A stretch of DNA of 64,000 nucleotides from Betaproteobacteria bacterium (lineage in GTDB: Bacteria > Pseudomonadota > Gammaproteobacteria > Burkholderiales > Burkholderiaceae_C), in contig VGHB01000013.1 of assembly GCA_016868355.1 (NCBI GenBank), positions 5,985-69,984 of the forward strand, read 5' to 3'. Positions 30,095 through 49,062 of this stretch are shown piece after piece. Positions within the stretch are counted from its first letter, which is position 1. The number at the start of each line of letters is the position of its first letter. A program made the position numbers and the translations under genes. The notes below the pieces were generated by a model. It was given only the letters and a program-made list of their open reading frames with translations. It did no database searches and was not told the DNA's origin.

Positions 30095-31546
30095 TCAGCG
30101 CCCAACGACGCTTGTCCACAAGGCGGTCAGCACGCGGCCCTCGTCAGGCGCGAGTGAGGTCCATCCCAGCTTCGGTCCATAAGGAGATCGGCTCGGGCTA
30201 CCCAAGAGCACGATCAAGCCGTTGCGCCGCACCGGATCCAGTGCAAAGGTCCCCAGCAGGCCGTAGGCATCTCCCAGATGGCCCCAGCCGCTGAAACCAC
30301 CGCCTTCAACCAGACGGTCGCCTAAGCCGGGGCCCCTGTTGCGGTCGGTGAAGCGTTGCGGCCCAAGCGCCCAGGAGACCATGGCCTCGTCCAAGGTGTC
30401 GCCGTTGGGCGCTTGCGGTTCATAGCGCCACTGTTCGGTGCTGAGCAAGCGCATCGCGTTATCGCTCAACAAGCTTTGGCCGCGGTGGCGTCCACCATTG
30501 AGCAGCATCTGCATCAACACCCCCAAGTCATCGCTGGAAATCCGCAAGCCGCCTTGTGGGCTGAAAACCGTCGCATTGCTGCCCGGCACATAGCGGTCCA
30601 GGCCCAGCGGTGCGGCCGGCCGGCTTGCGCGGTGGTCGTCGACCTGCGGCCACCAAGGGCCCTCAGGTTCCCAAATTTCACGCTCGCCCTCCAAGCGGCG
30701 CCGGCGGTACAGGGTGGCCAGGTCCTGGAGCTCATCGCGGGAAAGCGCCGAGGGCAAAAAGCCACCACGAAGCCCCAGCGGTTGCAAGACCAGGCGCTGC
30801 ATCAGCTGATCGAATCGCTCACCGGTGGCGCGCTCCATCACGGTGCCCACCACACCCCAGTTCAGGTTCACATAGTTGAACCAGCTGCCCGGTGCGCGCT
30901 GGCGCCGCCAGCTCAGCCCCCCACGGTACAAGGCCCCCGCGGGGTGCAACACGTCGCGCAAAGCCACGTCCGGGCCCCAAACATAGAAGCCCGCATCACT
31001 CAAGCCCGAGCGATGCGACATCAACAGGCGCAAGGTGATCGGCTGTTGCGCAAAGTCCGGGTGCCGCAGGCGCCAGCCCAACACATCGCCCACATCGGCA
31101 TCCACATCCAAGCGGCCCTGGTCCACCAAGCGCATCACCGCCACCGACACCACCAATTTCGAAATTGAGGCCACCCGAAACAGGCTGCTTGGCGTGACGG
31201 GAAGATCTTGCGCACGGTCTGTGGGATGGATAAAGCGCCGTCCGTGGTGGCTGCGGTGCACCACCTGCCCATCGCGCAGGGCCAGGGTGCAGAGTTGACC
31301 CCAAGCGCCCGGGTGCTCACCAACCAGGGCCTGCAGTTCCCGGTGAAGTGCTGAGGACCCCTGAGGCGATGGTTGCAGCGCTGGGCTCAGCGCTGGCGCA
31401 GCAGGCCCAGCACCCCGCCCCGCGCTGCAAGCCGCCAAAGACGCCAAGGCGGCACAACCGCCGATCAGGCAGGCGCGGCGATGTGTATTCGCTCCGAGGG
31501 CTCGATCCACGCGAGGCGCGGAACAAGGCGTCAAGCCCTGCTTCAT
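30095..31546 (-). CDS. Beta-lactamase-fold serine hydrolase (PF00144 type; AmpH / DD-peptidase-like), probable lipoprotein
   Basis: The ATG at 31546 overlaps the upstream kinase stop (ATGA). MKQGLTPCSAPRVDRALGANTHRRACLIGGCAALASLAAC (Tat/lipobox-like). SxxK motif in FRVASISKLVV. Confidence 0.7.
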   Translation of the reverse strand: MKQGLTPCSAPRVDRALGANTHRRACLIGGCAALASLAACSAGRGAGPAAPALSPALQPSPQGSSALHRELQALVGEHPGAWGQLCTLALRDGQVVHRSHHGRRFIHPTDRAQDLPVTPSSLFRVASISKLVVSVAVMRLVDQGRLDVDADVGDVLGWRLRHPDFAQQPITLRLLMSHRSGLSDAGFYVWGPDVALRDVLHPAGALYRGGLSWRRQRAPGSWFNYVNLNWGVVGTVMERATGERFDQLMQRLVLQPLGLRGGFLPSALSRDELQDLATLYRRRRLEGEREIWEPEGPWWPQVDDHRASRPAAPLGLDRYVPGSNATVFSPQGGLRISSDDLGVLMQMLLNGGRHRGQSLLSDNAMRLLSTEQWRYEPQAPNGDTLDEAMVSWALGPQRFTDRNRGPGLGDRLVEGGGFSGWGHLGDAYGLLGTFALDPVRRNGLIVLLGSPSRSPYGPKLGWTSLAPDEGRVLTALWTSVVGR

Positions 31547-32484
31547 ACAACGCCCGCCCACAGCCTGCGGGCCCGCTGCGCAGCCGCCGTGGAAGGGTCA
31601 ATCTGACGCAGTTCCAAGGGGCACTCGGCAGGCAGGCCAGCGCGCACACCCTGGCCCACCAAGGGGTGCAGCAGCAGCACACGGCCCGCGGCCACCACGG
31701 GCTTGGGCCCAAATCGACGGAACAGCACTGCGCCCAAGCGGCCGATCTCGATACCGGCACGCCGCAGCAGCAAGGCCGCCTCTGCGTCACCCAGTTCCGC
31801 CGCTTCGGCCACAGCCAGGGCTAATCGCCCCACCTCACCGCGGTCTTGCCCGTAAATGAACTGCCGGGTGCTGGCCCAATCCGAACCCCCCATGCGCGCA
31901 AACAAGCAACGGGCCATGGGGCTCTCCACCCACTGACCAGGCCATTCGTCTTCGCGGCGCCAAATGGTGGACAACGCCTCCTTGGCAATCCAATACCCGC
32001 CGCCTTCATCACCCAGGACGAAGCCCCGCCCACCGGCCCGGTGCCACACACCGTCCCCGTCGATGAACGATGCAATCGAGCCGGTGCCTGCGTACACGAG
32101 ATAGCCACCACCAGGTTCATGGGCCGCGCGAAAGGCGATGTCCATGTCGCTGTGGCACTGCACCTGGTGCGGTGCAGTGCTCAGCCGCGCCGCCACCAGG
32201 CCCGCCAGCTCCAGGGCCAACCCGCCCTGCGGATCGCTAACACCCGTGATGCCGGCGTACGTGCCCGCCACGCGGTGCGCGGGCAGCCGATGTGCCAGTG
32301 TAGCGGCCAGCTCATGCAGCGCTTGGCCAAGCTGCGCGCGGCCGGCCTCCGAAGTCAGGCTCATGCCACTGAAGCCGCCCACCTGCGCCTGTGCCAGCAA
32401 CTGGCCCTGCGCGTCCACGGCGGTCCAGCGGCACGCCGTACCGCCCGCATCCAGGCCCAGGTAGATCACACCTTGATGAACCAT
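31543..32484 (-). CDS. BadF/BadG/BcrA/BcrD-type ATPase; predicted N-acetyl-hexosamine kinase, paralog 2
   Basis: The track ORF runs to 32829, but the homology starts at the ATG at 32484: MVHQGVIYLGLDAGGTACRWTAVD. It then has GYLVYAGTGSIA and GGRGFVLGDEGGGYWIA. Shares long blocks with the 7725..8660 product. Confidence 0.75.
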   Translation of the reverse strand: MVHQGVIYLGLDAGGTACRWTAVDAQGQLLAQAQVGGFSGMSLTSEAGRAQLGQALHELAATLAHRLPAHRVAGTYAGITGVSDPQGGLALELAGLVAARLSTAPHQVQCHSDMDIAFRAAHEPGGGYLVYAGTGSIASFIDGDGVWHRAGGRGFVLGDEGGGYWIAKEALSTIWRREDEWPGQWVESPMARCLFARMGGSDWASTRQFIYGQDRGEVGRLALAVAEAAELGDAEAALLLRRAGIEIGRLGAVLFRRFGPKPVVAAGRVLLLHPLVGQGVRAGLPAECPLELRQIDPSTAAAQRARRLWAGVV

Positions 32485-33596
32485 TGGCGTCGGGCCATCC
32501 AGGCCGCCACGGCATAAAAGACCAGCACAAATCCCAACGCAAACAGCAGCGAGACCTGGACCTCGGGCAGCCCGGTGGGGCGCAAGCCCGCCACCAGGTG
32601 CATCTTCAGGCTCACGCCATCGAACTTGATGAAGGCCAGTCCTTTGGCCACCAAGCCTGCCAGTACGAACAGGAACAGGGCATTCATGCCAAAGTCCACC
32701 AGCGGCTGGGCCCAAGGGCGCCAGCGCGCACGGCTGGCGGCATCGGCCTGGGCATCCAAGACCCAATGGAAAGCCGCCAAGATGAGCAGCGCCCAGCCGG
32801 CAGTGCTGGCCACATAGGCAGGGGTCCACAAGGATTTGTTGATGGGCATGTTCGAGGCCGCCAACAGCTCACCGGCCCACAAGGCCAACAAGCCGGCCAG
32901 CACCAGACCCATGCAGCGCCGCCCCGGCTCTTGGGCCTGCGCCATCCAATGCCCGGTCAACACACCGGCCAACAGTGTGGACACCGCCGGCAAGGTGCTT
33001 AACAAGCCCTCGGGGTCCCAGGTGCGAGACTGGGCCCACAAGTGGCCGCCCATCAGCAAGCGGTCAACATAGCTGCCGGTGTCTTGTCCGGCCAGCAGCG
33101 AACCCACGCGCACCACACCGTCATCACCCGGCACCGGTACCGCCAGCATCAGCACGCTGTACAGCACCAGCAGGCCCGCAGCTGTCCAAGCTTGGCCACG
33201 AACCTTTAACCACACCACCGCCGGCGCACACAGCACGATGCACAAACCAATGCGTTGCAACACACCCGGCCAGCGCAGCGTGTTCCAGTCAAAGGCGGGC
33301 ACCGCATTGAGCATCAAGCCGATCAACATGATCACCAGCCCGCGGCGCATCAGGCCCCGGCACAGGGTCAAGGGCCCAGCGCCTTCGTGCTGCCGACGGG
33401 CCAAGCTCATGGGCATGGCCACGCCGCTGATGAAGATGAAGAAGGGAAAGATCCAGTCGGTGAAGGTCCACCCGTCCCACGGTGCGTGCAGCAAAGGACC
33501 GTACACATGCTTCCAGTCGCCCGGGTTGTTGACCAGCAGCATCGCCGCGATCGTCATGCCACGAAAGGCATCAAGGCTGTACAGCCGCCCGTTCAC
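32466..33596 (-). CDS. Transmembrane acyltransferase of the DUF1624/DUF5009, HGSNAT-like family (NagX-like)
   Basis: The GTG at 33596 overlaps the ampG stop (GTGA); the track ORF extends to 33731. (V)NGRLYSLDAFRGMTIAAMLLVNNPGDWKHVYGPLLHAPWDGWTFTDWIFPFFIFISG is the conserved N-terminal block of heparan-alpha-glucosaminide N-acetyltransferase-like membrane proteins. About 10 TM segments. Confidence 0.7.
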   Translation of the reverse strand: MNGRLYSLDAFRGMTIAAMLLVNNPGDWKHVYGPLLHAPWDGWTFTDWIFPFFIFISGVAMPMSLARRQHEGAGPLTLCRGLMRRGLVIMLIGLMLNAVPAFDWNTLRWPGVLQRIGLCIVLCAPAVVWLKVRGQAWTAAGLLVLYSVLMLAVPVPGDDGVVRVGSLLAGQDTGSYVDRLLMGGHLWAQSRTWDPEGLLSTLPAVSTLLAGVLTGHWMAQAQEPGRRCMGLVLAGLLALWAGELLAASNMPINKSLWTPAYVASTAGWALLILAAFHWVLDAQADAASRARWRPWAQPLVDFGMNALFLFVLAGLVAKGLAFIKFDGVSLKMHLVAGLRPTGLPEVQVSLLFALGFVLVFYAVAAWMARRQWFIKV

Positions 33597-34885
33597 GCAA
33601 CCGGCTCCCGTCGGCCGAAGTTTTCCGGCACCCGGATCAGGGCTGTCATCACAAAGGACGGAATGGCCGCCACCATCACCCACACGAAAAAGCCAGCATA
33701 GCCCAAGGCCTCCTGAAGCCAGCCGCTCCAAAAGCCCGGGATCATCATGCCCATGGCCATGAAGCCGGTGCAGATGGCGTAGTGCGCCGTCTTGTGCGGC
33801 CCCTCGGCGATCAAGATCATCACCATCAGGTAGGCCGCAAAACCGACGCCATAGCCGAACTGTTCAATGGCCAAGGCTGTGCTGACCACCCACAGCTGCT
33901 GCGGCGGCGACAACGCCATGGCCAAGAACACCAGGTTGGGCAGGTGCATGCCCCACACCAAAGGCCACAAGCAGGCCTTCAAGCCAAACCGCGAAATCAG
34001 CAGCCCGCCCACGATACCCCCGACCGTCAAGGCGATCAGGCCCACCGTGCCATAGGCCACCCCCACCTCGCGGGTGGAAAGGCCCAAGCCGCCTGCTTCA
34101 GCGGGGTCTAGCAGAAAGGGCGTCGCCATCTTCAGCAACTGCGCTTCCGGAAAACGGTAGAGCAAGAGGTAGGCGATGCCCACCGCGATGGCAGGCTTGC
34201 GGAAGAACGTACCCAACACCGAGAAGAACTCGATGAACAAGCTGGAGTGGACCGTACCCGGCCGGTCTTCAGCCGGATAGGGCAAGCGCCAAGCGTGGTA
34301 CAGGCCCACCACGCCGAAGCACACCGCCAATAAAGCCATCACCACCTGCCACGCCACCACCGCCGAGCCGCTGCGTTCGGCCACCTCGCCGGCCAGGTAC
34401 ACCAGCCCCCCCTGCCCGGCGATATTGGCCACGCGGTAAAAGGTGGAACGGATGCCCACGAAGGCCGCCTGCTGGTGCGTGGGCAGGGCCATCATGTAGT
34501 AGCCATCGGCTGCAATATCGTGGCTGGCACTGGCAAAGGCCATGAGCCACAACAGGGCCAGGCTCCAGCGCACCCACTGCTCGGTGGGCAGGCTCAGCGC
34601 CACCATCGCCACCATCGCACCCACCGCAAACTGCAGCAGCCAAATCCAGCGCCGCCGCGTGCCCAAGAGTTCAATCAAGGGGCTCCAAAGCGGCTTGATC
34701 ACCCACGGCAGGTACAGCCAGCTTGTGTACAGCGCGATGTCGGTGTTGGACATCCCCAAGTTCTTGTACATCACCACGCTCAGTGACATCACCACCACAT
34801 AGGGCAGGCCCTGCAGCAAGTAGAGGCTAGGCACCCAGGCCCAGGGGCCAGGGCCGGGCCCTTCAGTTCGAAGCGTCGAGGTCAA
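33593..34885 (-). CDS. ampG: AmpG-family MFS muropeptide permease
   Basis: PWAWVPSLYLLQGLPYVVVMSLSVVMYKNLGMSNTDIALYTSWLYLPWVIKPLWSPLIE matches the AmpG block (..LWSPL..). The start is uncertain: TTG at 34885 with a GAAGGG 7 nt upstream is preferred, and the track start at 34969 would overlap nagA by 107 nt. Confidence 0.75.
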   Translation of the reverse strand: MTSTLRTEGPGPGPWAWVPSLYLLQGLPYVVVMSLSVVMYKNLGMSNTDIALYTSWLYLPWVIKPLWSPLIELLGTRRRWIWLLQFAVGAMVAMVALSLPTEQWVRWSLALLWLMAFASASHDIAADGYYMMALPTHQQAAFVGIRSTFYRVANIAGQGGLVYLAGEVAERSGSAVVAWQVVMALLAVCFGVVGLYHAWRLPYPAEDRPGTVHSSLFIEFFSVLGTFFRKPAIAVGIAYLLLYRFPEAQLLKMATPFLLDPAEAGGLGLSTREVGVAYGTVGLIALTVGGIVGGLLISRFGLKACLWPLVWGMHLPNLVFLAMALSPPQQLWVVSTALAIEQFGYGVGFAAYLMVMILIAEGPHKTAHYAICTGFMAMGMMIPGFWSGWLQEALGYAGFFVWVMVAAIPSFVMTALIRVPENFGRREPVA

Positions 34886-36014
34886 TGGCCTGCCCTTCCA
34901 CCACCACCTGCTGCAGCTGCAGCGAGTGGGGGTCCAACACCACCAGGTCTGCCCAGGCACCCTGCGCAATCACCCCGCGGTCGCTCAAGCCCAGGTACTG
35001 CGCGGCGTGCGTGCTCACACGCGCGCTGGCCTGGGCCACCGACAGCCCAATCTGCACCAGGTTTCGCAAGGCCTGGTCCATGGTCAAGGCGCTGCCGGCC
35101 AGGGTGCCATCGGCCAGGCGCACGCCACCCAAGCACTTGTGCACCGTGTATTGCCCCAAGGGATAGGCGCCATCGGGCATGCCCGCTGCAGCCGTTGCAT
35201 CGGTCACGGCAAACAGGCCGGGCACTGCACGCACGGCTGCATGGATGGCGCCAGGGTGTACATGCAACAGGTCGGGAATGATTTCCGCATGCTCTGCGTG
35301 GGCCAAGGCAGCCCCGACCGCACCGGGCGCCCGGTGGTGCATCGGGCCCATGGCGTTGAACAAATGGGTGAAGCCAGAAGCGCCGTGCCGCAACGCCTGT
35401 AAGGCCTCTTCATAGGTGGCCCGGGTATGGCCCACCTGAACCCGGATACCGGCGGCCACCAATTCAGGAATCAGGGCCAGATTGCCAGGCATCTCAGGGG
35501 CCAGCGTCAGCACGCGAATCGGCGCCAACGCATTCAGGCGCAGGATGTCCTGCAAGGAGGCCGCTTGGGCGTGTGGTGGTTGCGCCCCAAGCTGATCAGG
35601 ACTGATGTAAGGCCCCTCCAGGTGCACACCCAAGACACGCGCGGCCTGATCGGCGCGCTGCAAGCACTGCGCAGACAAGGCCCTCAGGGCGGCCTCAATC
35701 TCCGGTAGTGGCGCGGTCATGGTGGTGGCCAACAAAGAGGTGGTGCCATGTCGCGCATGGGTGCGCGCCAAGCACTGCACCGCATCCTGGCCTTCCATGG
35801 TGTCGCGGCCGCCGCCGCCGTGGATATGCAGATCGATAAAGCCCGGCAGGATCAAAGGCGGCGCTTGCTCCGCCCGAAGCTCGTGCTCGACAAGCGTGCC
35901 CTGCACGCCAACCACGCGGCCCTGCGACCAGTGCACCTGCCCCTGCACCCAGCCACCAGGGGCCAAGACCTGACCGCTCAGGAAGGCTGAACGACTCTGA
36001 GCAGCTTGGCCCAT
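34863..36014 (-). CDS. nagA: N-acetylglucosamine-6-phosphate deacetylase
   Basis: LILPGFIDLHIHGGGGRD, HLEGPYISP, GFTHLFNAM and AVTDATAAAGMPDG are NagA amidohydrolase blocks. Start taken at ATG 36014 (alternatives 36053 and 36071). Confidence 0.85.
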   Translation of the reverse strand: MGQAAQSRSAFLSGQVLAPGGWVQGQVHWSQGRVVGVQGTLVEHELRAEQAPPLILPGFIDLHIHGGGGRDTMEGQDAVQCLARTHARHGTTSLLATTMTAPLPEIEAALRALSAQCLQRADQAARVLGVHLEGPYISPDQLGAQPPHAQAASLQDILRLNALAPIRVLTLAPEMPGNLALIPELVAAGIRVQVGHTRATYEEALQALRHGASGFTHLFNAMGPMHHRAPGAVGAALAHAEHAEIIPDLLHVHPGAIHAAVRAVPGLFAVTDATAAAGMPDGAYPLGQYTVHKCLGGVRLADGTLAGSALTMDQALRNLVQIGLSVAQASARVSTHAAQYLGLSDRGVIAQGAWADLVVLDPHSLQLQQVVVEGQAIDLDASN

Positions 36015-36230
36015 GGAGGCCCCGCCCTTGACATTTCGGCGTGGTGCGTGCATTCCGCGATCATCGCTCAAAAGTCAGGCCATGCCCTTGTTCACCGCCG
36101 CCAGACGCAACCGCACACGGCGCGAGCGATGGCACCGGTGCCCGGCCAGCGCCGCAGGCCCTGATGCCTGCGGGCTCTGATGCCCCCAGGCCCTTTCTAT
36201 ACTGCGCACCGCACAGACCCGAGACCACAC

Positions 36231-37478
36231 ATGGCGCTGAATTTCATTTGGATCGGCTTCATCCTCATTGGCTTTGCCGTAGCGGCGGTCAAGGTGGCCA
36301 TGGGGCAAACAGCCCTGTTTGGCCAAATGCTCAGCGGGCTGTTTGACATGGCCAAGACGGGCTTTGACATCTCACTGGGCCTGGTGGGAGTGATGACGCT
36401 GTGGCTGGGCATCATGAAGATCGGCGAGCAGGCCGGCGTCATCCAATTATTTGCGCGCGGCGTGGCGCCGTTCTTCCGCCGCATCTTTCCCGGCATTCCA
36501 CCGGGCCACCCGGCCAGCGGCAGCATTGCGATGAATGCATCGGCCAACATGCTGGGGTTGGACAACGCAGCCACCCCATTGGGTCTGAAGGCCATGCGCG
36601 AGCTTCAGGAGATCAACACCGACAAGTCGGTAGCCTCCGACCCCATGATCATGTTTCTGGTGCTCAACACGGCTGGCATCACCTTGATTCCCGCTTCTGT
36701 GATCGCCATCCGCCAAAGCTTGGCAGCCGAACAAGGGCTGAGCAACTTCAACGGCGCCGACATCTTTTTGCCCACCCTGATCGGTACCTTCATCTCGTTC
36801 ACCGCAGGCCTGCTGGCCGTGGCCTGGGTGCAGCGCATCAAGCTGCTGTGCGCACCGGTGCTGGCCTTCTTTGGCGGCTTTGCGGCCCTGATGGGCGTGC
36901 TGTACCTGTGGCTGTCCGGTATGCCGGCAGCTCAAATGGCACAGTCGATTTCGGTCCTGGGCAGCGGCATCATTTTGGCCATCATCGTCACCTTCGTTGC
37001 GGTCGGTGCGCTAAGGCGCGTGAATGTTTATGAAGCCTTTGTGGACGGTGCCAAGGAAGGCTTTGGGGTGGCGGTGCAGATCATTCCCTACCTGGTGGCC
37101 ATGCTGGCGGCCATCTCTGTGTTTCGCAGCAGCGGCTGCATGGACTATCTGGTGCAGGGCATTGGTGCGGGTGTGCGGGCCCTGGGGCTGGACGACCAGT
37201 TCGTGCCCGCACTGCCCGTGGGCTTGATGAAGACCATGTCGGGCAGCGGCGCACGCGGCCTGATGGTCGATGTGCTCAAGACCTATGGCGTGGACTCTTT
37301 TGAGGGGCGACTGGCCAGCATCATTCAGGGGTCTACCGAAACCACCTTCTATGTGTTGGCGGTGTACTTTGGCAGCGTGGGAATCAAGAAGACGCGCCAT
37401 GCCCTGGGCTGCGCGCTGACCGCCGACGCCGTGGGTTTGATCGGCGCCATCATTGTCGGATATGCGTTTTACGGCTGA
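36231..37478 (+). CDS. Fused SpmA/SpmB-like nucleoside-recognition (Gate) domain membrane protein
   Basis: The ATG at 36231 gives MALNFIWIGFILIGFAVAAVKV.. Two Gate-like halves in ~415 aa, including GVMTLWLGIMKIGEQAGVIQLFARGVAPFFRRIFPGIP. The architecture matches fused spore-maturation-protein A/B homologs. Confidence 0.65.
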   Translation: MALNFIWIGFILIGFAVAAVKVAMGQTALFGQMLSGLFDMAKTGFDISLGLVGVMTLWLGIMKIGEQAGVIQLFARGVAPFFRRIFPGIPPGHPASGSIAMNASANMLGLDNAATPLGLKAMRELQEINTDKSVASDPMIMFLVLNTAGITLIPASVIAIRQSLAAEQGLSNFNGADIFLPTLIGTFISFTAGLLAVAWVQRIKLLCAPVLAFFGGFAALMGVLYLWLSGMPAAQMAQSISVLGSGIILAIIVTFVAVGALRRVNVYEAFVDGAKEGFGVAVQIIPYLVAMLAAISVFRSSGCMDYLVQGIGAGVRALGLDDQFVPALPVGLMKTMSGSGARGLMVDVLKTYGVDSFEGRLASIIQGSTETTFYVLAVYFGSVGIKKTRHALGCALTADAVGLIGAIIVGYAFYG

Positions 37479-37517
37479 ACGGCGCAGCCAGCTGGGTTGA
37501 AGGGCAGGACCACCGGC

Positions 37518-38771
37518 ATGCGAACGTTCACACACGCTGAACTGGCCCACGCCCTTTGCGACGGTCTTCAAGCCAGCCTTGGCCAAGCTCCGGCCTTTGA
37601 CCCGTCGCCGACCATTGATTTGGCGGTGGTGGCCTTTGCGCCGGGTGCGCCCGCGGTGTGGGCCAATGCGCTGTGCACTCGAGGCCATGCGGCCCCCGTG
37701 GTGGCAGACATCGGCCCGGATGCCTCCAGTGTTCGGGGCATACGCTATTGGGCCGACCCGACCGACGATCAGCGGCGCTCCATCGCATGGCTGCCCGGGT
37801 CCGACTGGCGGAAGCTCGATGGCCTGCAAAGCCTGTACGGCAGCGGCCCCGTGGAGTCGATTGCCCCCTACCCGGCTTCGCTGATCAAGTTGATGGTGGC
37901 CGTTGGCGTAGGCCTGTTGGTGGATCGCAACCGGGCTCAATGGAGCGAAGCCTGGGCTTGGGGTGGCCGCACACGAACCGTGCTTCAGTGGACCGACGGC
38001 ATGGTCACCGAAAGCCGCAACGAGGACACCAGCGCCTTGGTGGCCTTGCTACATGTGCGGGGCCTGATCAAAACTCCGCATTCAGGTGATCACGCCCAGG
38101 CCGGCCGCCAAGTTGCCCCTGCTGGGGTGAACCGGCTGCACGATGTGTTTCGGGCGTACGGCTTGCCCACTTTGCGTCTGGACCGCACGCGCGCTGATGG
38201 GGGCTGGCTCAACCAAGACGGTTCAGGCGTGGGCCACCTGCAGATGACCGCCTGGGATACCGCACGGCTGCTGTGGTTGATGCTGCCGGCGGTGATGCCC
38301 GCGTGCCCTGCGCCTGCCTGGCTGCCGGCCCAAACGCCCGCCCTGCTGCAGCCACACACCGCCCGTGTCCTGTGGCAACTGCTGGACGACCAGGCGCTGC
38401 ATGAGGTGTTGTCGTCCTCGGTCAGCGTAGGCATGCCCGGGTGGAGGCCCGGCATCCCGGCCGCGGTACCCGAGCGTTGGGTGATGCCCAACGGGCGCGT
38501 GGCCGCGGCCGACCGACAGTGGCCGGGAGACACCCGCGCCGTGCATGCACAAGCCCAGGTGAAGTTCGCCCACAAGACGGGCACGACCGAGAACTATGCC
38601 TCAGACGCAGGTTGGGTGCGCAGCCTGCGCCCCGGTGGGCGGCAGTACCTGGTGGCGATGCTGTCGACGCTGGGATCGCGCCATGCACCCCAGCCCGGTT
38701 TGGCCACCGATTGGTGCATTCCAGCCCTGGGCGCACGCATCGATGCCTGGCTTGCCGATCGGCTTGGTTAG
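37518..38771 (+). CDS. Class-A-beta-lactamase-like / DD-peptidase-fold serine hydrolase
   Basis: ATG at 37518 (the track start at 37497 is a TTG). SxxK in YPASLIKLMVAVG, SxN-like ESRNED, KTG in FAHKTGTTENY. Lies 39 nt downstream of the SpmAB-like gene. Confidence 0.6.
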   Translation: MRTFTHAELAHALCDGLQASLGQAPAFDPSPTIDLAVVAFAPGAPAVWANALCTRGHAAPVVADIGPDASSVRGIRYWADPTDDQRRSIAWLPGSDWRKLDGLQSLYGSGPVESIAPYPASLIKLMVAVGVGLLVDRNRAQWSEAWAWGGRTRTVLQWTDGMVTESRNEDTSALVALLHVRGLIKTPHSGDHAQAGRQVAPAGVNRLHDVFRAYGLPTLRLDRTRADGGWLNQDGSGVGHLQMTAWDTARLLWLMLPAVMPACPAPAWLPAQTPALLQPHTARVLWQLLDDQALHEVLSSSVSVGMPGWRPGIPAAVPERWVMPNGRVAAADRQWPGDTRAVHAQAQVKFAHKTGTTENYASDAGWVRSLRPGGRQYLVAMLSTLGSRHAPQPGLATDWCIPALGARIDAWLADRLG

Positions 38772-38902
38772 GCGCGCGCCGCCAGGCTGCTTGGGTTGAC
38801 CCTCTGTGCCTTTCTGGCAACACCCAGGCCTCGTGTTTTCCCGAGTGCAGGGTGCCGCGAACAGCAGATTGCGCGAGGATCAATGCCCCACCTGTCAGCC
38901 TT

Positions 38903-38919
38903 CATAACCAAAGGTTATG
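38903..38919. promoter_or_regulatory. Perfect dyad CATAACC-AAA-GGTTATG containing a T-N11-A LysR-type box
   Basis: Read directly at 38903-38919, about 140 nt upstream of the TonB-dependent receptor ATG (39059). A LysR-family gene lies in the same gene string at 41949. Confidence 0.4.
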
Positions 38920-39058: not shown

Positions 39059-41929
39059 ATGAAACTCAAGCCGATCGCACAAACACTGGCTGCCCTCAGC
39101 CTCATCTCGCCCGTTCTGGCGCAACAGGCAGCCGAACAACGGGTGGAGATCACCGGCTCGAGCATCAAACGCCTGGCCAGCGAAGGCGCCCTGCCCGTAC
39201 AGGTCATCACCCGTGCCGAGATCGAACAGCAGGGCCTGACCAGCACCGAGCAGGTGATCCTGTGGTTGTCCACCAACGGCAACGGTTTAGATAACCTGGC
39301 CTCCAACGCCGACGTGGTGGGCGGTGCCCAACGGGGCAACAACGGTGCCACCAGCGCCAACCTGCGCGGCCAAGGCAGCAACGCCACCTTGATTTTGTTG
39401 AACGGCCGGCGTGTGGCCGCGCACGGTCTGAACGGCGGCGTGGTCGACCTGAACCAGGTTCCAATAGCCGCCATCCAGCGCATTGAAGTGCTCAAGGACG
39501 GCGCCAGTTCGATCTACGGTACCGACGCCATCGGCGGCGTGATCAACTTCATCCTGCGCACCGACTACCGCGGGGCCTCGATTCAGGGCACCAGCGACGT
39601 CACGCAGGCCGGTGGTGGCAACATCTACCGTGCTTCGGTGGTCGCCGGCACCGGTGACCTCAGCCGAGATGGCTACAACCTGATGGCGGTTTTGGCGCGG
39701 CGCGAGCACCAGGCCCTGCGTGGCGACCAACGCGACTTTGTCAACACCTTTCAGCCCAACCGAGGCTTGAGCGTGGACACCCGCGGCACACCGTTTGCCA
39801 CCATCTTCCCCTTGGCCGGCACCCTATTCCCCGCCGCCACATCTTTCCCCTTCGTACCCGGCAGCACCACGGTGCGGGCCTCGGGTGGACTGAATGTGCT
39901 GGACCTGCCGGGTGCCGAAGGATGCGGCTCGATCACCGGCCAAGCACCCTACGACGCCCTGTTGTGGAACGTGCCCACGGCCGCCCTGGCTTGCGCCTGG
40001 GACACTGGCCGCGCGGCGGTGCTGCAACAACCCATCAGCGGCACCAACCTGGTGGCACGCGCCACCTTCAAGTTGGGTGAGCACCAGTTGGCCGCCGAGT
40101 TCACCGGCAGCCAAACCGAGTCGGCCAAGCGTTTTTCGAACGTACAGTTGACGCCCAACACCACAACTCAACAGCTTCGCTTCCCCCGCAACGCTGCCTC
40201 GCAGGCAGCCTATGACGCGGTCTTCAATCGCTTGCGGTCGGCCTTCCCGAGCCAGATCACCGAGGCGCAGCGCGGCCAGTCGCTTGCCTACCGCTGGCGT
40301 TGCATGGAGTGCGGCCCGCGTGAACTGGAAACCGACACCACCACACAACGTTGGGCTGTCACCATGGACGGCCCACTGGGCAAAGGGTGGGACTACCGTG
40401 CAGGCCTGATCCAAGCCACCAGCCAAGCCAAGTCCAAGCTCGGCTCGGGCTACTACTACCGCGGCACCACAGCCACCGGCGCATCCGATGGCGGCCCGGG
40501 CATCATCCCGGCGCTGAACAGCGGGCGCATCAACATCTTCCTGTTCCCCGGTCAGACCCAAAGCGCCGACGGCCTTGCGGCCCTGCAAGAAGCCTCGGCG
40601 GCTGGCGTGGTGCTGTACGGCGGCAAGTTCACCATGCAACAAGCCGACTTCACGGCTTCGGGCCCGGTGGCCAAGTTACCCGCCGGCGAGGTCATGGCCG
40701 CACTGGGGGCCGATGTGCGGCGGGAAGAGTACCGTTTCAATGGCGACGAACGCGACCTGCCTGCCCAGCGCATCATCGTTGCCGCGCCCTTTGACCAGAC
40801 CAACGTGCTTTTGGGCGCCAAACGTGAGGTCAAGGCCCTCTACGGCGAATTGCTGGTGCCCATCACCAAGCAACTGGAAACCACGTTGTCGGCTCGGCGC
40901 GACGACTACACCGGTTTTGGTGTCACCACCAATCCCAAGGTGTCGGCCCGCTGGAAGCCTTTTCAACAGTTCCTGGGCCGTGGCTCCTACAGCACCGGGT
41001 TCCGGGTGCCCACCTTCAACCAACTCTACAACGGCTCGGCCGAGTCACTGTTCACCGGCACCACGCTGGTGGACCCCAAGACCTGCCCCGGCGGTCGCCC
41101 GAACACCACCGATCCTGGCTGCGCGTTCATTGACCGTGCCGCCAACATCATCAACGGTGGCAAGCCTGACCTCGGCCCCGAAGAGGCCAAGATGGGTTCC
41201 GTGGGCTTCATCGTCGAGCCCAGCGCCAATCTGAGCATCGGACTGGACTGGTGGTCCATCCGCCGCGAGGGCACGATCCAAATCCTGTCACTGACCCAGC
41301 TGATCGACAACTACAAGCTTTTCCCCGAGCGCTTCATTCGGGATGGGGCCGGCAAGATCATCGCGGTCGACCAACGCTGGATCAACGCCGGCGAGACCGA
41401 AACCTCGGGTGTTGAGGTGACCCTGCGCAGTGGCTTCATGGCGATGGACGCACGCTGGACCGCCGGGTTGGACGGCACCTATTTGCTCAAGAAGCGTTCG
41501 CGCGTGGTGCCCTCTGCGGCCTGGAGCGCCAGCGAAGTCGGCCAATTCAGCTTTGCCGGTGACTTGGGGCTGCGTTGGAAGCACAGCGCCTTCCTCACCC
41601 GCAGCAAGGGCTCATGGGTCAGCACCATTTCGCAGGTCTTCCGCAGCGGCTACAACGACCAGGTGCTGCCCGGCGTGGCCGCTGGCGCCGTCACGCCGCC
41701 CGATTGGAAGAGCCGTGTGGACAGCTACACCACCTACAACATGGCGCTGACCTACACCGGCATCAAGAACCTGCGGGTGACCGGCCTGATCAAGAATGTG
41801 TTCGACCGTGACCCGCCGTTTGCCATCACCTATGACAGCAACTTCGGCTCGGGCAGCTCGTGGGAGCCCCGTGTTACAGACCCGCGCGGCCGTGCCTTCG
41901 TGGTCAGCTTCGATTACAGGTTCCGCTGA
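39059..41929 (+). CDS. TonB-dependent receptor
   Basis: 956 aa. GGAG upstream of the ATG. Signal MKLKPIAQTLAALSLISPVLAQ. Plug VEITGSSIKRLASEGALPVQVITRAEIEQQGLTS .. ANLRGQGSNATLILLNGRR. C-terminal RAFVVSFDYRFR. Confidence 0.9.
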   Translation: MKLKPIAQTLAALSLISPVLAQQAAEQRVEITGSSIKRLASEGALPVQVITRAEIEQQGLTSTEQVILWLSTNGNGLDNLASNADVVGGAQRGNNGATSANLRGQGSNATLILLNGRRVAAHGLNGGVVDLNQVPIAAIQRIEVLKDGASSIYGTDAIGGVINFILRTDYRGASIQGTSDVTQAGGGNIYRASVVAGTGDLSRDGYNLMAVLARREHQALRGDQRDFVNTFQPNRGLSVDTRGTPFATIFPLAGTLFPAATSFPFVPGSTTVRASGGLNVLDLPGAEGCGSITGQAPYDALLWNVPTAALACAWDTGRAAVLQQPISGTNLVARATFKLGEHQLAAEFTGSQTESAKRFSNVQLTPNTTTQQLRFPRNAASQAAYDAVFNRLRSAFPSQITEAQRGQSLAYRWRCMECGPRELETDTTTQRWAVTMDGPLGKGWDYRAGLIQATSQAKSKLGSGYYYRGTTATGASDGGPGIIPALNSGRINIFLFPGQTQSADGLAALQEASAAGVVLYGGKFTMQQADFTASGPVAKLPAGEVMAALGADVRREEYRFNGDERDLPAQRIIVAAPFDQTNVLLGAKREVKALYGELLVPITKQLETTLSARRDDYTGFGVTTNPKVSARWKPFQQFLGRGSYSTGFRVPTFNQLYNGSAESLFTGTTLVDPKTCPGGRPNTTDPGCAFIDRAANIINGGKPDLGPEEAKMGSVGFIVEPSANLSIGLDWWSIRREGTIQILSLTQLIDNYKLFPERFIRDGAGKIIAVDQRWINAGETETSGVEVTLRSGFMAMDARWTAGLDGTYLLKKRSRVVPSAAWSASEVGQFSFAGDLGLRWKHSAFLTRSKGSWVSTISQVFRSGYNDQVLPGVAAGAVTPPDWKSRVDSYTTYNMALTYTGIKNLRVTGLIKNVFDRDPPFAITYDSNFGSGSSWEPRVTDPRGRAFVVSFDYRFR

Positions 41930-41948: not shown

Positions 41949-42902
41949 GTGAGGCTACGCCACCTTGAGGTCTTTCATGCTGTGATGCGCGCTGGCACCG
42001 TCAGTGGTGCCGCGCGTCTGCTGCACATCTCGCAGCCGGCGGTCAGCAAGGTGCTGCAGCATGCGGAAGCCCAACTGGGCCTGACCTTGTTCGAACGGGT
42101 GGCGGGGAAGTTTCACCCCACGCCTGAAGCGCGCCGCTTGTTCGCCGAGGTGGACAAGCTGCACGCTGAGTTGATGTCGATACGGCGCCTGGCCGTCAAC
42201 CTCAAGAGCGGGCCGCAGCAGCGGGTGCGGCTGTCGGTGACGCCGGCCTTGGGTGCCACCGTCGTGCCTTTGGCCGTAGCGCGTTGGTCCCGCAGCTTTG
42301 CTTCTGGCCACTGCGAACTGGCCACCCACCACACGCGCGAACTGGTCCAAGCCTTGATCCTGTCAGAGCTGGATCTGGGCCTGACGCTGCAAGACCCGCA
42401 GCACCCTGGAGTGCATGCAGAGGTGCTCACCCGAGCGCCGATGATGGCCCTGCTGCCGGCGCGTGGGGCCGCTCTGCGCGCCCGCACCGCGGTGCGCCTG
42501 GAGTCCCTGCCCCGTCACTTGATTGGCCTGTCACCGCAAGACCCACTGGGCCTGAGGCTCACGGCCGAATGTGAGGCACTGGGCCTGTCGCTGCAGCCGC
42601 AGGTTTCGGTGCAGACCTATCAGCTGGCGCGGCAGTTGGCGGAGGCCGGCGTGGGTACCGCCATCGTGGACCCGTTCACCGCAGCACAGGCCGATCGTGG
42701 TCGGGTGGCGGTTCGGCCCGTTGAGCCCTTGATCACCGTTCCCCTGGTCCTGTTGACCCCAGTGGCCGCCCCGCTGTCGCAGCCCGCGCGGCGCTTGGTG
42801 CAGGAGCTGCGCCAGTCGGCCAGTGTCTGTCTGCATGAGGCCGGCATTGCCGAAGTTGCCGAGCCCGGCTCGGCAGCCGAGCGGCGTGCACGGACGCGTT
42901 GA
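41949..42902 (+). CDS. LysR-family transcriptional regulator
   Basis: 317 aa. HTH (M)RLRHLEVFHAVMRAGTVSGAARLLHISQPAVSKVLQHAE. Confidence 0.9.
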   Translation: MRLRHLEVFHAVMRAGTVSGAARLLHISQPAVSKVLQHAEAQLGLTLFERVAGKFHPTPEARRLFAEVDKLHAELMSIRRLAVNLKSGPQQRVRLSVTPALGATVVPLAVARWSRSFASGHCELATHHTRELVQALILSELDLGLTLQDPQHPGVHAEVLTRAPMMALLPARGAALRARTAVRLESLPRHLIGLSPQDPLGLRLTAECEALGLSLQPQVSVQTYQLARQLAEAGVGTAIVDPFTAAQADRGRVAVRPVEPLITVPLVLLTPVAAPLSQPARRLVQELRQSASVCLHEAGIAEVAEPGSAAERRARTR

Positions 42903-42917
42903 TCACCGCCTGCAGCC

Positions 42918-43577
42918 ATGACCCCACACCCGAGCGCTTCTGGACCCGCCCGCGAGCCTGAGCCGGTGGCACCCACGCTGACCTGCGAAACCATAGGGCG
43001 GCACGCCGACTTTGTGCACCTGTCCACCGTCCCCGGCATTGCTGTGGACATCCGCTACGCCAGCGAGTCCAACTTTGCCGGGCGCAGTCTGTACAAGGGA
43101 CTGGACTGCGCTTGGCTGCGCCGGCCGGCCGCGCAGGGTCTGGCCCGCGCGGCGCAGTGGTTGGCTGCGCAGCGCCCGGGCTACGCGCTGCGGGTGCTGG
43201 ATGCCCTGCGCCCGCAGCGTGTGCAGGAAGCCATTTGGCAAGAGGTGCGCGGCACGCCGATGGCCGCCTACTTTGCCGAGCCTGTGCGCGGCTCGATCCA
43301 CTCATTCGGCATGGCGGTCGACGTGACGCTGTTGAATCCGCAAGGCCTGGAGTGCGATATGGGCAGCCGGTACGACGAAATGAACCGACTCTCTCACCCC
43401 AACCTGGAAGCGCAGCACCTGGCCCTCGGGCACTTGGAGGCCCAGCACTTGGTGGACCGGGGCTGGCTGTATGCGGCCATGGCCCAGGGTGGTTTTGTGG
43501 GCATTTCCACCGAGTGGTGGCACTTCGATCATGGCGATCGCGAACAAGTACGACGGGAGATGCAACGTGTGTGGTGA
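42918..43577 (+). CDS. ddpX: D-alanyl-D-alanine dipeptidase (VanX/DdpX, peptidase M15D), cytoplasmic
   Basis: 219 aa. IAVDIRYASESNFAGRSLY, VLDALRPQRVQ, SIHSFGMAVDVTL and EWWHFD are VanX-family zinc-site blocks. No signal peptide. Confidence 0.8.
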   Translation: MTPHPSASGPAREPEPVAPTLTCETIGRHADFVHLSTVPGIAVDIRYASESNFAGRSLYKGLDCAWLRRPAAQGLARAAQWLAAQRPGYALRVLDALRPQRVQEAIWQEVRGTPMAAYFAEPVRGSIHSFGMAVDVTLLNPQGLECDMGSRYDEMNRLSHPNLEAQHLALGHLEAQHLVDRGWLYAAMAQGGFVGISTEWWHFDHGDREQVRREMQRVW

Positions 43578-44655
43578 GACCGGATCCATCAAGCGCCGTG
43601 CGGTGCTTCAAAAGGCGGCAGCGGTGTGGATGGCCGGTCTCGCTGGCAGTGTGGCCGTGCCCCTGGCCGCAGCGGCCAACCCCAAAGCAGCTGCGGCTTC
43701 GGCACTGCCCTTGATCAAGCCACCGAGGCTGCAAAGCGGTCAAACCATCGGCCTGGTGGCGCCATCGGGTGCCATGCATGAACGGCTGCCGGTGGAGATT
43801 GCCATCGACACCTTGACCGCCCTGGGCTTCAAGGTGAAGGAGTCGCCACATCTGCGGGCGCGGCGCGGCCACTTCGCCGGCACCGATGCGCTGCGCGCTG
43901 CAGCGCTGAACGCCATGTTCAAGGACCCCGATGTACACGGCGTGCTGGCCATCACCGGCGGCTCTGGCGCCAATCGCATCCTGCCCCTGCTGGACTACGC
44001 ACAGTTGCGCCGCACGCCGAAGTTCGTGGGTGGGTTTTCCGACATCACCGCGCTGTTGAATGCGGTGCACAGCCAAACCGGCTTGGTCACCTACCACTGC
44101 CCGGCAGCGGTCTCAGAGTGGAACGAATTCAGCTGGCGGCACTTCAGGGGCGTGGCCATGGAAGGCACGCCGGTGCTCATGCGCAACGAAGCCGACAAGG
44201 GTTCACTGCCGGCCCCGCGCGAGGACCGAACGCTGACCATCCGCCCAGGCGTGGGCCGTGGGCCGCTGTTGGGCGGTAACCTGGCGGTGCTGTCGTCCTT
44301 ATGCGGTTCCGGCTATCTGCGGTCCTTTGACGGTGCCATCCTGTTCCTGGAAGAAGTCAACGAGTTCATCTACCGGGTAGACCGCATGCTGTCGACGCTG
44401 AAGCTGGCCGGGGTGTTGGACCGGCTGTCGGGTGTGATGCTGGGGGCCTTCACCAACTGCACGCCCGGTGATGGCTTCTGGACCCTGACACTGGACGAAG
44501 TATTTGAGGACTACTTCGGCAGCCTGGGGGTTCCGGTGTACCGCGGTGCATCGTTTGGCCACATCAAGCGCAAATTCACCCTGCCGCTGGGCGTGCCCGC
44601 CGAAATTGATGCAGGTGCCGGCACGGTGCGCCTGCTCGAGTCGGCGGTGGCCTGA
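43531..44655 (+). CDS. ldcA: LD-carboxypeptidase (peptidase S66, LdcA-like) with Tat-type signal
   Basis: The S66 core is IGLVAPSGAM .. AITGGSGANRILPLLDY .. FVGGFSDITALL .. SFGHI. The N-terminus GSIKRRAVLQKAAAVWMAGLAGSVAVPLAAAA looks like a twin-arginine signal. The start is ambiguous (ATG 43531, or GTG near 43566); either overlaps the ddpX 3' end. Confidence 0.75.
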   Translation: MAIANKYDGRCNVCGETGSIKRRAVLQKAAAVWMAGLAGSVAVPLAAAANPKAAAASALPLIKPPRLQSGQTIGLVAPSGAMHERLPVEIAIDTLTALGFKVKESPHLRARRGHFAGTDALRAAALNAMFKDPDVHGVLAITGGSGANRILPLLDYAQLRRTPKFVGGFSDITALLNAVHSQTGLVTYHCPAAVSEWNEFSWRHFRGVAMEGTPVLMRNEADKGSLPAPREDRTLTIRPGVGRGPLLGGNLAVLSSLCGSGYLRSFDGAILFLEEVNEFIYRVDRMLSTLKLAGVLDRLSGVMLGAFTNCTPGDGFWTLTLDEVFEDYFGSLGVPVYRGASFGHIKRKFTLPLGVPAEIDAGAGTVRLLESAVA

Positions 44656-46354: not shown

Positions 46355-46457
46355 CGCAGCAAGGGCACACAAAACGGTTGTGTTCACCGCGCCATCATTC
46401 CACGGCGGAGCGACGGTGCACAAGTGCGCAGGCCGGCCGGCGACGCCCATGCCTTTG

Positions 46458-46501
46458 GGTAATGGGGCGGTGATGGGGCGGTAATGGGGCGGTAATGGGG
46501 C
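46458..46501. repeat. Four tandem 11-bp units GGTAATGGGGC / GGTGATGGGGC / GGTAATGGGGC / GGTAATGGGGC
   Basis: Read directly from the sequence. Located in the divergent intergenic region between dacB (start 46354, minus) and the amiD-like gene (start 46584, plus). Confidence 0.9.
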
Positions 46502-46583
46502 GCATTTCAACTTTTGAACTGCAGCGCCGGCATCAGGGCTGCAACGGGTGTTCGACCTTGATGGCCAGGCGCACAATTGGTGC

Positions 46584-47429
46584 ATGCAACCTGACTCAAA
46601 GCGATGCGGGCCGCTGAAATTGCTGGCCCATTGGTGCGGCGTGCTGTTGGCGGCGGCCCTGGTGGCCGGCTGCGCAGGCCCACGCATAGACGCCCACACC
46701 CACCGTGCGGTCAGCCATGACAGCCGGGCCCAGTTCCTGATCCTGCACTACACAGCCGTCGACTTGGCCACGTCGATCCGCATCCTGACGCAGCAACGCG
46801 TGTCTTCGCACTACCTGGTCACCGACGAGCAGCCCCCCCGCATCTACCGCTTGGTTGATGAGGACCGACGGGCTTGGCACGCCGGGATCAGCGCCTGGGA
46901 CGGGCACGCCATGCTCAACGGCAACTCTATTGGCATTGAGATCGTGAATCTGGGCTACCGGTCTGGGACCGACGGTCGGCCCACCGATTTCCAGCCCTAT
47001 TCGCCCGAGCAGGTCGAGTTGGTGGTGGAGTTGGTGCGTGACATCGTCAAGCGTCACCAGATCCGGCCCGACCGCGTACTCGGGCACAGCGACATTGCGC
47101 CGCAGCGCAAGATCGATCCGGGGCCCCTGTTTCCCTGGAAACGGCTGGCCGATGAAGGGCTGGTGACGTGGCCCAAGCCTGACGACGTTCGCCAGGCGCA
47201 AGCCCTGTACGCCACGGCAGTCCCACCAGTGCAATGGTTCCAACAGGCCCTGGCTAAACACGGCTTTCTGGTGGCCCAACATGGCGAACTCGATGAACCC
47301 ACGCGGCGAGTGGTGGCTGCATTCCAGATGAAGTACCGACCCGCGAGATACGACGGCCAGCCCGATGCTGAAACGGCCGCCCTGTTGACCGCGCTGACCG
47401 GTCTGCGCCACCAGGCCAAGGCACCGTGA
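46584..47429 (+). CDS. amiD: N-acetylmuramoyl-L-alanine amidase, AmiD/AmpD family, outer-membrane lipoprotein type with C-terminal peptidoglycan-binding domain
   Basis: The ATG at 46584 gives MQPDSKRCGPLKLLAHWCGVLLAAALVAGC (lipobox VAGC). Core FLILHYTA .. SSHYLV .. RAWHAGIS .. NSIGIEIVN .. GHSDIAPQRKIDPGPLFPW. C-terminal PGRP-type binding repeat (..VVAAFQMKYRPARYDGQPD..). Confidence 0.8.
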   Translation: MQPDSKRCGPLKLLAHWCGVLLAAALVAGCAGPRIDAHTHRAVSHDSRAQFLILHYTAVDLATSIRILTQQRVSSHYLVTDEQPPRIYRLVDEDRRAWHAGISAWDGHAMLNGNSIGIEIVNLGYRSGTDGRPTDFQPYSPEQVELVVELVRDIVKRHQIRPDRVLGHSDIAPQRKIDPGPLFPWKRLADEGLVTWPKPDDVRQAQALYATAVPPVQWFQQALAKHGFLVAQHGELDEPTRRVVAAFQMKYRPARYDGQPDAETAALLTALTGLRHQAKAP

Positions 47430-49057: not shown

Positions 49058-49062
49058 GGACC

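Follow-up and report, generated by a model that had tools for sequence, protein, structure and literature searches.

A fused SpmA/SpmB homologue in a betaproteobacterial peptidoglycan-scavenging island as a candidate importer of stem peptides

The window studied here is a stretch of 64,000 nt from a Burkholderiales genome (assembly GCA_016868355.1, contig VGHB01000013.1, positions 5,985 to 69,984), in which two co-oriented genes encode a fused homologue (SpmAB) of SpmA and SpmB, two proteins of spore maturation, and a serine hydrolase of a penicillin-binding fold. Both genes are present as a single copy in the genome (2.7 Mb, 99.99% complete), the G+C content of the region is 62-69%, and the host is presumably non-sporulating, judging from its taxonomy. 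As described in the original prediction, a membrane protein of about 415 residues with two Gate halves is followed, after 39 nt, by a hydrolase carrying SxxK, SxN-like and KTG motifs, and the pair is divergent from nagA. The gap lies between the spmAB stop (37478) and the hydrolase ATG (37518). When scanning positions 35900-39200, no terminator-like site was found in this gap and no sigma-70-like promoter site was found in the scanned region. Because the 39-nt gap holds no such terminator and the pair recurs in three metagenomic relatives (L043, L044 and L131, the two genes overlapping by 8 nt in L131), spmAB and the hydrolase gene form an operon.

In Bacillus subtilis, SpmA and SpmB are needed for dehydration of the spore core and for heat resistance (Popham 1995, cited in PMC13188902). 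The operon dacB-spmA-spmB is documented in the literature, as is the wet-core phenotype that spm mutants show. The biochemical role of both proteins is still described as unknown in the literature, which bears out what had been stated about this operon in the original prediction.

The spmAB open reading frame spans positions 36180-37478. Its likeliest start is the ATG at 36231, because the homologues are also 415 residues long and begin with MxLN. When the halves were scanned separately, the Pfam Gate domain (PF07670, cut-off 29.6 bits) matched twice, at residues 49-160 with 48.5 bits and in the C-terminal half with 54.8 bits. There are more than 8,000 homologues, named 'nucleoside recognition domain-containing protein' or 'spore maturation protein SpmA/SpmB' in the databases. 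Burkholderiales relatives are 75-91% identical to the window protein, with the best homologues in Aquabacterium, Ideonella and Rubrivivax, and fused proteins with 50-66% identity are found in Bacteroidota, Gemmatimonadota, Chlorobiota, Calditrichota and Methylococcales. We also found, in genomes of Bacteroidota and Gemmatimonadota, adjacent reading frames for an SpmA-type (~200 aa) and an SpmB-type (~180 aa) protein, which align to residues ~3-200 and ~240-410 of SpmAB with 43-53% identity. The assignment to SpmA/SpmB is based on the Gate domains, on these split neighbours matching each half and on the database names. A search with the N-terminal half for a named Firmicute SpmA returned only pieces of fused proteins, comparison of the two halves by BLASTP gave no significant internal repeat (E 0.029), and NCBIfam contains no model for SpmAB and none for the hydrolase. 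In a variant of the split arrangement (L142-L155 and L190-L200; Bacteroidota and Gemmatimonadota), spmA encodes ~320-345 aa, with a ~155-aa N-terminal extension ahead of the Gate domain of SpmA type, and the SpmB that follows has the normal 180 aa.

The AlphaFold2 model of SpmAB (predicted local distance difference test score, pLDDT, 86) was all-helical and, in a Foldseek search, weakly resembled elevator carriers for anionic solutes, first the TRAP transporter SiaQM, followed by NaS1, ArsB, Pho90, VcINDY and AbgT/YdaH. On the basis of this model, SpmAB is predicted to be an elevator-type secondary transporter. No ATP-binding cassette (ABC) domains were found in SpmAB by the Pfam scan, and no solved structure with a sequence relation to it was found. 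Among the top 50 fold matches of the model, MurJ/MOP and SEDS flippases were absent, as were structures of concentrative nucleoside transporters.

The catalytic motifs of the hydrolase are S121-L-I-K124 (in ASLIK), S166-R-N168 and K353-T-G355. These residues are invariant across 49 homologues (49-80% identity) and are therefore not chance matches. Pfam assigned the protein to PF13354 (Beta-lactamase2) with 25.4 bits, barely reaching the cut-off of 22, and Peptidase_S11 gave no match in Pfam or NCBIfam. A search with the family profile against solved structures returned PBP-A (Tll2115) and Lmo2812 as nearest (E 0.001-0.01), and PBP5-type chains only at E 0.12-0.14. The AlphaFold model (pLDDT 93.4) matched PBP-A Tll2115 (2j8y, 2j7v), LRA-5, PER-2 and CTX-M best in Foldseek, with a probability of 1.0, a target template modelling (TM) score of 0.64-0.72 and 12-15% identity; compared to these structures, the hydrolase has ~150 extra residues in an N-terminal module and insertions. 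Most of its homologues are similar in length. By eye, no invariant Glu was seen in the segment LDRTRADGGWLN (residues 221-232), where E166 of class A beta-lactamases would be expected, and by this placement the enzyme resembles PBP-A more than true beta-lactamases.

From inspection of sequence and model, the N-terminus of the hydrolase (MRTFTHAELAHALCDGLQ...) is a confidently modelled helix without a hydrophobic signal sequence. We therefore read the enzyme as cytoplasmic, which would be an unusual location for this fold. With neither an S11 signal nor an evident signal peptide, an enzyme of the PBP5* type was ruled out, and a true secreted beta-lactamase was ruled out for want of a signal peptide. 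The proposal of a penicillin-binding-type enzyme thus stands as far as a PBP-A/class-A fold is concerned, but not for the S11 type known from B. subtilis.

About 1,170 members of the hydrolase family can be detected, under the names 'serine hydrolase' or 'hypothetical'. Six contexts were inspected, from genus-level relatives, from Piscinibacter sakaiensis, from a related genome bin and from Chitinimonas and Pelomonas, and in each of them it is encoded in a stem-peptide locus, together with LdcA, M15 dipeptidase, Amidase_2, AstE/AspA, S13, TonB-dependent receptors and, abutting it in two cases, a D-amino-acid oxidase/dehydrogenase-like protein (DAO). This makes the hydrolase a conserved part of a catabolic module for peptidoglycan peptides. 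DAO and AstE/AspA genes flank it in Pelomonas, Chitinimonas and Piscinibacter. The abutting DAO genes of Chitinimonas and Pelomonas (L047:8769-11227 and L133:8747-11236) overlap the hydrolase gene by 16 nt in one case and lie at 0-nt spacing from it in the other, which suggests that a D-amino acid set free by the hydrolase is subsequently oxidised.

The spmAB-hydrolase pair sits inside a peptidoglycan-scavenging island of ~25 kb (Table 1), so that the salvage setting which had been proposed for it is confirmed. The DAO and AstE/AspA genes beyond murQ (50042-52663) extend the island further. The AmiD-like gene of the island and the AmiD-type genes in other islands share 55-62% identity. A long extension at the N-terminus of the S66 LD-carboxypeptidase includes a twin-arginine-like segment (KRR...AAA), and the homologue in locus L029 begins with RRRFNRLLAGALLLPAA; islands of this kind seem typically to encode an LdcA of the periplasm, not of the cytoplasm. 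Among the annotated island genes we identified no second peptide importer, and no Ddp-type dipeptide importer is encoded in the island. Nor is there an S11 DacB partner: the co-transcribed neighbour of spmAB is the PF13354-type hydrolase, and the nearest DD-peptidase of the penicillin-binding type is the S13 enzyme PBP4, ~7 kb away on the other strand.

Table 1. Genes of the peptidoglycan-scavenging island in window coordinates (L numbers denote loci used for comparison)
Gene product	Position	Strand	Basis and remarks
TonB-dependent receptor	27519..30074	+	Plug domain; Plug and barrel in syntenic L043
PF00144 beta-lactamase-family serine hydrolase	30095..31561	-	143.6 bits; lipoprotein-like N-terminus
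BadF/BcrAD-type sugar kinase (N-acetylglucosamine (GlcNAc)/N-acetylmuramic acid (MurNAc) kinase-like)	31543..32829	-	PF01869
HGSNAT_cat/NagX-like membrane protein	32466..33731	-	PF07786
AmpG-family major facilitator superfamily permease (muropeptide or disaccharide importer)	33593..34969	-	TIGR00901 166.6 bits, under the 350-bit cut-off; PF07690
NagA (GlcNAc-6-phosphate deacetylase)	34863..36071	-	TIGR00221 253.6 bits, cut-off 225.65; likely start 36014
Fused SpmA/SpmB homologue	36231..37478	+	415 aa with a Gate domain in each half; polytopic, all-helical membrane protein
PBP-A/class-A-beta-lactamase-fold serine hydrolase	37518..38771	+	417 aa; SxxK, SxN, KTG; no evident signal peptide
TonB-dependent receptor, downstream of the pair	39059..41929	+	PF00593, PF07715
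LysR-family regulator	41949..42902	+	PF00126, PF03466
VanX/DdpX-type D-Ala-D-Ala dipeptidase	42918..43577	+	PF01427 83.7 bits; no evident signal peptide
LD-carboxypeptidase (S66)	43471..44655	+	PF02016, PF17676; twin-arginine-like N-terminus
PBP4-type (S13) DD-carboxy/endopeptidase	44738..46699	-	PF02113 220.5 bits
AmiD-like MurNAc-L-Ala amidase (lipoprotein)	46548..47429	+	PF01510 and PF01471 in syntenic L043 gene
GHL10-family protein	47426..49054	+	PF02638 in syntenic L043 gene
MurQ-like MurNAc-6-phosphate etherase	49060..49956	+	GKRP_SIS_N in syntenic L131 gene; 59-60% identity to L033 and L039 counterparts
FAD-dependent D-amino-acid oxidase/dehydrogenase-like protein (DAO)	50042..51226	-	tblastn 52% identity to the hydrolase-abutting DAO of Pelomonas (PF01266)
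AstE/AspA-family zinc amidase, probably MpaA-like in action	51710..52663	-	tblastn 61% identity to an AstE_AspA_cat gene of an Aquabacterium island

It had been supposed that SpmAB recurrently pairs with an enzyme of the DD-peptidase fold. The pair is, however, present only in the three genus-level metagenomic relatives. When 301 Burkholderiales genomes were sampled evenly, SpmAB was found in 60 and the hydrolase in two, namely the source genome and one without SpmAB. The hydrolase was likewise missing from all SpmAB loci fetched outside the genus-level relatives (0/40 in Burkholderiales and 0/80 across phyla, 0/120 overall), and Ideonella sp. DXS22W encodes both proteins on different contigs. 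Neighbours of the penicillin-binding or beta-lactamase fold are also rare across SpmAB loci: PBP4 is encoded directly downstream in two, and PF00144 or PBP4 is found nearby in three more. SpmAB and a penicillin-binding-fold enzyme are not a conserved pair.

In Aquabacterium sp. OR-4 and Ideonella sp. DXS22W (L129:8965-11248 and L130:8902-11248), a TctC-type (PF03401) binding-protein gene without TctA/TctB lies directly upstream of, and co-oriented with, spmAB. It is the second kind of orphan binding protein adjoining SpmAB, beside the family-5 type described below.

We then inspected 41 Burkholderiales SpmAB loci (40 from the order sample and L048), and in eight of them SpmAB lies within a peptidoglycan island. 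In L029 and L036 the gene of a family-5 binding protein is divergent from spmAB and PBP4 is encoded directly downstream, with gaps of 88 and 10 nt; an upstream position of PBP4 in these two loci was considered and rejected. In L033 nagA is divergent from spmAB, as in the window, and in L037 AmiD and PF00144 genes adjoin it. The family-5 binding-protein gene is directly upstream in L038-L040, of which L038 and L040 also encode an AstE/AspA amidase downstream, and in L048, an Aquabacterium genome bin, amiD directly precedes spmAB. In a tree of 125 SpmAB sequences, seven island loci formed one clade with 100% support that comprises three GTDB families. All seven members of this clade lie in peptidoglycan islands and are 48-52% identical to the window SpmAB. 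Since the clade stands apart from the window protein on the tree, the cell-wall context requires at least three changes.

The clade of the window SpmAB (Sphaerotilaceae, Rhodocyclales, Ralstonia/Cupriavidus and some Comamonadaceae) groups with sequences of Sphingobacteriia and Chitinophagia (63-66% identity, 100% support; including L055, L058-L061, L063 and L067) and is set apart from all other Burkholderiales SpmABs (46-55% identity). This grouping in the sequence tree suggests gene transfer between phyla. A conserved string of three genes, for a CobD/CbiB-family membrane protein, SpmAB and an exopolyphosphatase (Ppx/GppA), was seen repeatedly, in two Burkholderiales families as well as in Thiobacillus (L013, L015, L017, L021, L025 and L093), with a polyphosphate kinase gene near it. 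The CobD/AmpE-like gene upstream of spmAB in five to six loci was not counted as cell-wall evidence, as it scored 130 bits for CobD and 22.6 bits for AmpE.

One family, f49, was sampled more deeply. SpmAB was present in 34 of its 61 genomes, and directly upstream of spmAB there is, in 25 of 30 loci, a gene for a family-5 binding protein of the peptide type (in one of them with LdcA in between). An AstE/AspA amidase is encoded downstream in 11 of the 30, and in the remaining five loci MurQ/AmpG, a kinase or AstE/AspA adjoins SpmAB. An orthologue of the binding protein (at least 67% identity) was found in 33 of the 34 SpmAB-positive genomes compared to none of the 27 SpmAB-negative ones. It is still there in three genomes in which the two genes are unlinked, and within three genera both genes were gained or lost together.

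Beyond the Burkholderiales, we tallied the Pfam families of the gene 5' of spmAB in 110 diverse loci. Among the top families were Peptidase_M14 (five loci), SBP_bac_5 (four), AstE_AspA (three), YkuD (three) and Amidase_2 (two). The three Gemmatimonadota M14 genes of this tally are co-oriented and lie 5-72 nt upstream of spmAB. Two of them were scored against NF007897 (cut-off 157) and, with 241-243 bits, are true MpaA. With one locus added by the phylum sample, MpaA is encoded upstream at four of four fused Gemmatimonadota loci examined; in one genome of that sample, split spmA-spmB is followed by an M14 gene downstream. An M14 gene is also upstream in three Sphingobacteriaceae loci, and a YkuD gene directly upstream in four Rhodocyclales-type loci. 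Taken together, adjacent genes for stem-peptide enzymes or binding proteins (MpaA, M14, YkuD, AmiD, PBP4, LdcA, family-5 binding protein and AstE/AspA) occur in at least four separate lineages of three phyla. In 10 non-island loci with ~14 genes each, the sole cell-wall gene is the immediately adjacent, co-oriented upstream gene. Judging from these counts rather than a formal test, such placement in at least three independent lineages would be hard to explain by chance.

In Prevotella (L085, L111, L114, L115, L120 and L124), the gene after spmAB on the same strand encodes a MOP-superfamily (Polysacc_synt) membrane protein, and in most cases one for an S46 dipeptidyl-peptidase comes next. The L085 contig is labelled as Oscillospiraceae (Bacillota), but its fused SpmAB and neighbours are nested within Prevotella sequences. 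The 'phylum' sample for its genome behaves as Bacteroidota, with BshC and DUF5683 neighbours, and the record is probably mis-binned or mislabelled.

We favour the reading that peptidoglycan stem peptides are imported by SpmAB, as an elevator-type transporter, and processed by the hydrolase in the cytoplasm, and give it an even chance of being correct. While the gene anatomy, the modelled folds, the conserved catalytic motifs and the genomic contexts have been shown, the substrate, the direction of transport and the bond that the hydrolase cleaves are inferred. Wall fragments may enter the cell through the TonB-dependent receptors, after which periplasmic AmiD, PBP4 and the exported-looking LdcA would free stem peptides. 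SpmAB, as an ion-coupled elevator carrier of the inner membrane, would import the free murein tri- or tetrapeptide, possibly also the pentapeptide. The hydrolase would trim the imported peptide as a DD-peptidase or a related D-stereospecific peptidase. In the cytoplasm, this PBP-A-like enzyme would dismantle stem peptides together with the VanX-like dipeptidase, DAO and the AstE/AspA amidase. The sugars may be handled by AmpG, the kinase, MurQ and NagA.

Several observations weigh against this reading. The fold matches of SpmAB are weak (TM 0.35-0.46, root-mean-square deviation above 10 Å), although Foldseek gave them a probability of 1.0. In the closest named orthologues, from Aquabacterium sp. 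OR-4 and Ideonella (80-81% identity), SpmAB lies outside any peptidoglycan island. No peptidoglycan neighbour could be recognised at about 85% of 140 diverse SpmAB loci, and the Bacteroidales loci adjoin YbeY, MnmG, Skp, MiaA and BshC. Related genomes and lineages are non-independent samples and the counts were not set against a genome-wide null; furthermore, the tblastn reference set was small and the gene calls were heuristic. Finally, the family-5 binding proteins could serve distant Opp/Dpp ABC permeases, by analogy to E. coli, where MppA works with the Opp ABC permease, and SpmAB would then carry another fragment.

The main rival explanation is that SpmAB imports a smaller product of peptidoglycan, such as D-Ala, D-Ala-D-Ala, D-Glu or meso-diaminopimelate (mDAP), and that the hydrolase and the other enzymes act on material imported separately. 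The island encodes a D-Ala-D-Ala dipeptidase without an evident signal peptide and a DAO-type oxidase and lacks a Ddp-type importer, while the recurring neighbours PBP4, LdcA and YkuD all release D-Ala, as does the operon partner DacB of B. subtilis. On the other hand, the mpaA-spmAB operons and the pairings with AstE/AspA and family-5 binding proteins point to an intact tripeptide: MpaA of E. coli acts on free L-Ala-gamma-D-Glu-mDAP, which must enter the cell whole. We regard the smaller cargo as unlikely, though a serious competitor.

SpmAB might also be a housekeeping transporter of a nucleoside-like or other small solute that has no relation to the cell wall, its position in the island being incidental and perhaps due to insertion beside a core gene. 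The unrelated neighbours at most loci, the very high conservation of SpmAB across phyla (50-66% identity), the 80% orthologues outside islands and the naming of the Pfam family for nucleoside recognition would all fit this explanation. Against it, the lone cell-wall gene of the 10 non-island loci is always the adjacent upstream one, two SpmAB clades that are 48% identical both occur in peptidoglycan islands, and SpmAB and the binding protein were jointly gained or lost in the three genera of f49. We consider such a housekeeping role rather unlikely.

An import of amino-sugar or anhydromuropeptide that would feed the divergent nagA operon, with the hydrolase removing or trimming its peptide, is clearly improbable. 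It agrees with the divergent nagA in the window and L033 and with MurQ, AmpG or a kinase upstream of SpmAB in L159 and L167-169, but the island already has an AmpG-type permease and all neighbours found outside Burkholderiales are peptide enzymes. Export or flipping of a cell-wall precursor or building block, in a biosynthetic role, is very improbable, since for all that the spm genes of B. subtilis are needed for proper cortex function and a MOP-flippase-like gene follows spmAB in Prevotella, the recurring partners are all hydrolytic or catabolic, several of them (MpaA, AstE/AspA, M15 and the hydrolase) having no evident signal peptide, and the top 50 model matches showed nothing like MurJ/MOP or SEDS. 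Of the role originally suggested for SpmAB proteins, a peptidoglycan-related transport step that is not specific to spores, the transport part is genuinely supported by the contexts in at least four lineages of three phyla, while the flipping part does not agree with the elevator-like model and the catabolic partners.

A more far-reaching version of stem-peptide import, which we consider speculative and rather unlikely, is that SpmAB is the membrane part of an unrecognised binding-protein-dependent secondary transporter and that SpmAB of B. subtilis clears stem peptides or D-Ala. A periplasmic family-5 (MppA/Opp-type) protein, or elsewhere one of the TctC type, would deliver the murein peptide to the SpmAB elevator carrier, in a TRAP-like manner with unrelated parts. 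In B. subtilis, CwlD and DacB release stem peptides and D-Ala during cortex synthesis, and SpmAB would move these from the closed intermembrane space into the mother cell. If this holds, the wet-core phenotype seen in spm mutants would find its explanation in the removal of this osmotic load.

A literature search found no link between SpmAB or Gate proteins and cell-wall recycling. The contexts described here turn the question of SpmAB function into a concrete hypothesis, that of a stem-peptide importer. If true, SpmAB would be a third kind of importer of cell-wall fragments beside AmpG and the Opp/Yej ABC systems, a function would be found for a 'nucleoside recognition domain' protein that is very widespread in Gram-negative bacteria, and it would be suggested how dehydration of the spore core depends on clearing cortex by-products. 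The window contributes a fused SpmAB with a new hydrolase partner, which represents an uncharacterised family of the penicillin-binding fold that has no evident signal peptide and tracks loci for the catabolism of peptidoglycan peptides. The survey contributes the MpaA operons, the pairing and co-occurrence with a binding protein in f49, and the two clades of the tree.

When compared to known systems, the locus shares with dacB-spmA-spmB of B. subtilis the genomic linkage of Gate-domain membrane proteins to a penicillin-recognising peptidase that acts, in the window putatively, on stem peptides. In the window, however, the two halves are fused in one protein of 415 aa, the lineage is Gram-negative and presumably non-sporulating, and the partner is a PBP-A/class-A-like hydrolase without an evident signal peptide instead of the exported S11 enzyme PBP5*. 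The setting differs as well, being cortex synthesis in B. subtilis and catabolic scavenging in the window.

The proposed job of SpmAB, bringing murein tripeptide or muropeptides into the cytoplasm for processing of the MpaA or LdcA type, is that of MppA-OppBCDF with MpaA, LdcA and AmpG in E. coli, and the E. coli recycling families MpaA, LdcA, AmiD, NagA, MurQ and AmpG also surround SpmAB. This likeness concerns the proposed function only, as Opp is an ABC permease whereas SpmAB would be a secondary transporter. In contrast to recycling in E. coli, the LdcA of the window looks exported, and the TonB-dependent receptors imply uptake of exogenous wall fragments.

The TRAP (DctQM/SiaQM), DASS and AbgT families, which the SpmAB model resembles weakly, are helical-hairpin elevator carriers for anionic solutes, and the binding-protein gene adjoining spmAB in some lineages recalls the TRAP arrangement. 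The binding proteins of TRAP systems are of the DctP or TAXI type, whereas those next to SpmAB are of the family-5 or TctC type, and SpmAB has no sequence similarity to these carriers.

The hydrolase shares the fold and the SxxK, SxN and KTG motifs with PBP-A (Tll2115) of Thermosynechococcus elongatus and with class A beta-lactamases, and like PBP-A appears, by eye, to be without the invariant Glu at the expected place of E166. The known members of both groups are exported. The hydrolase differs in having no evident signal peptide, in its stem-peptide catabolic loci, in its 12-15% identity to them and in its ~150 extra residues.

Finally, SpoVV and the concentrative nucleoside transporters belong to different subfamilies but share the Gate domain (PF07670) and a predicted elevator mechanism with SpmAB. 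SpoVV (YlbJ) is a Gate-family protein that carries the dicarboxylate dipicolinate, and an elevator mechanism has been proposed for it (PMC5629000). Gate-family proteins are therefore not limited to nucleosides, and SpoVV, which exports dipicolinate in sporulation, provides a precedent for a Gate protein with a non-nucleoside anionic solute.

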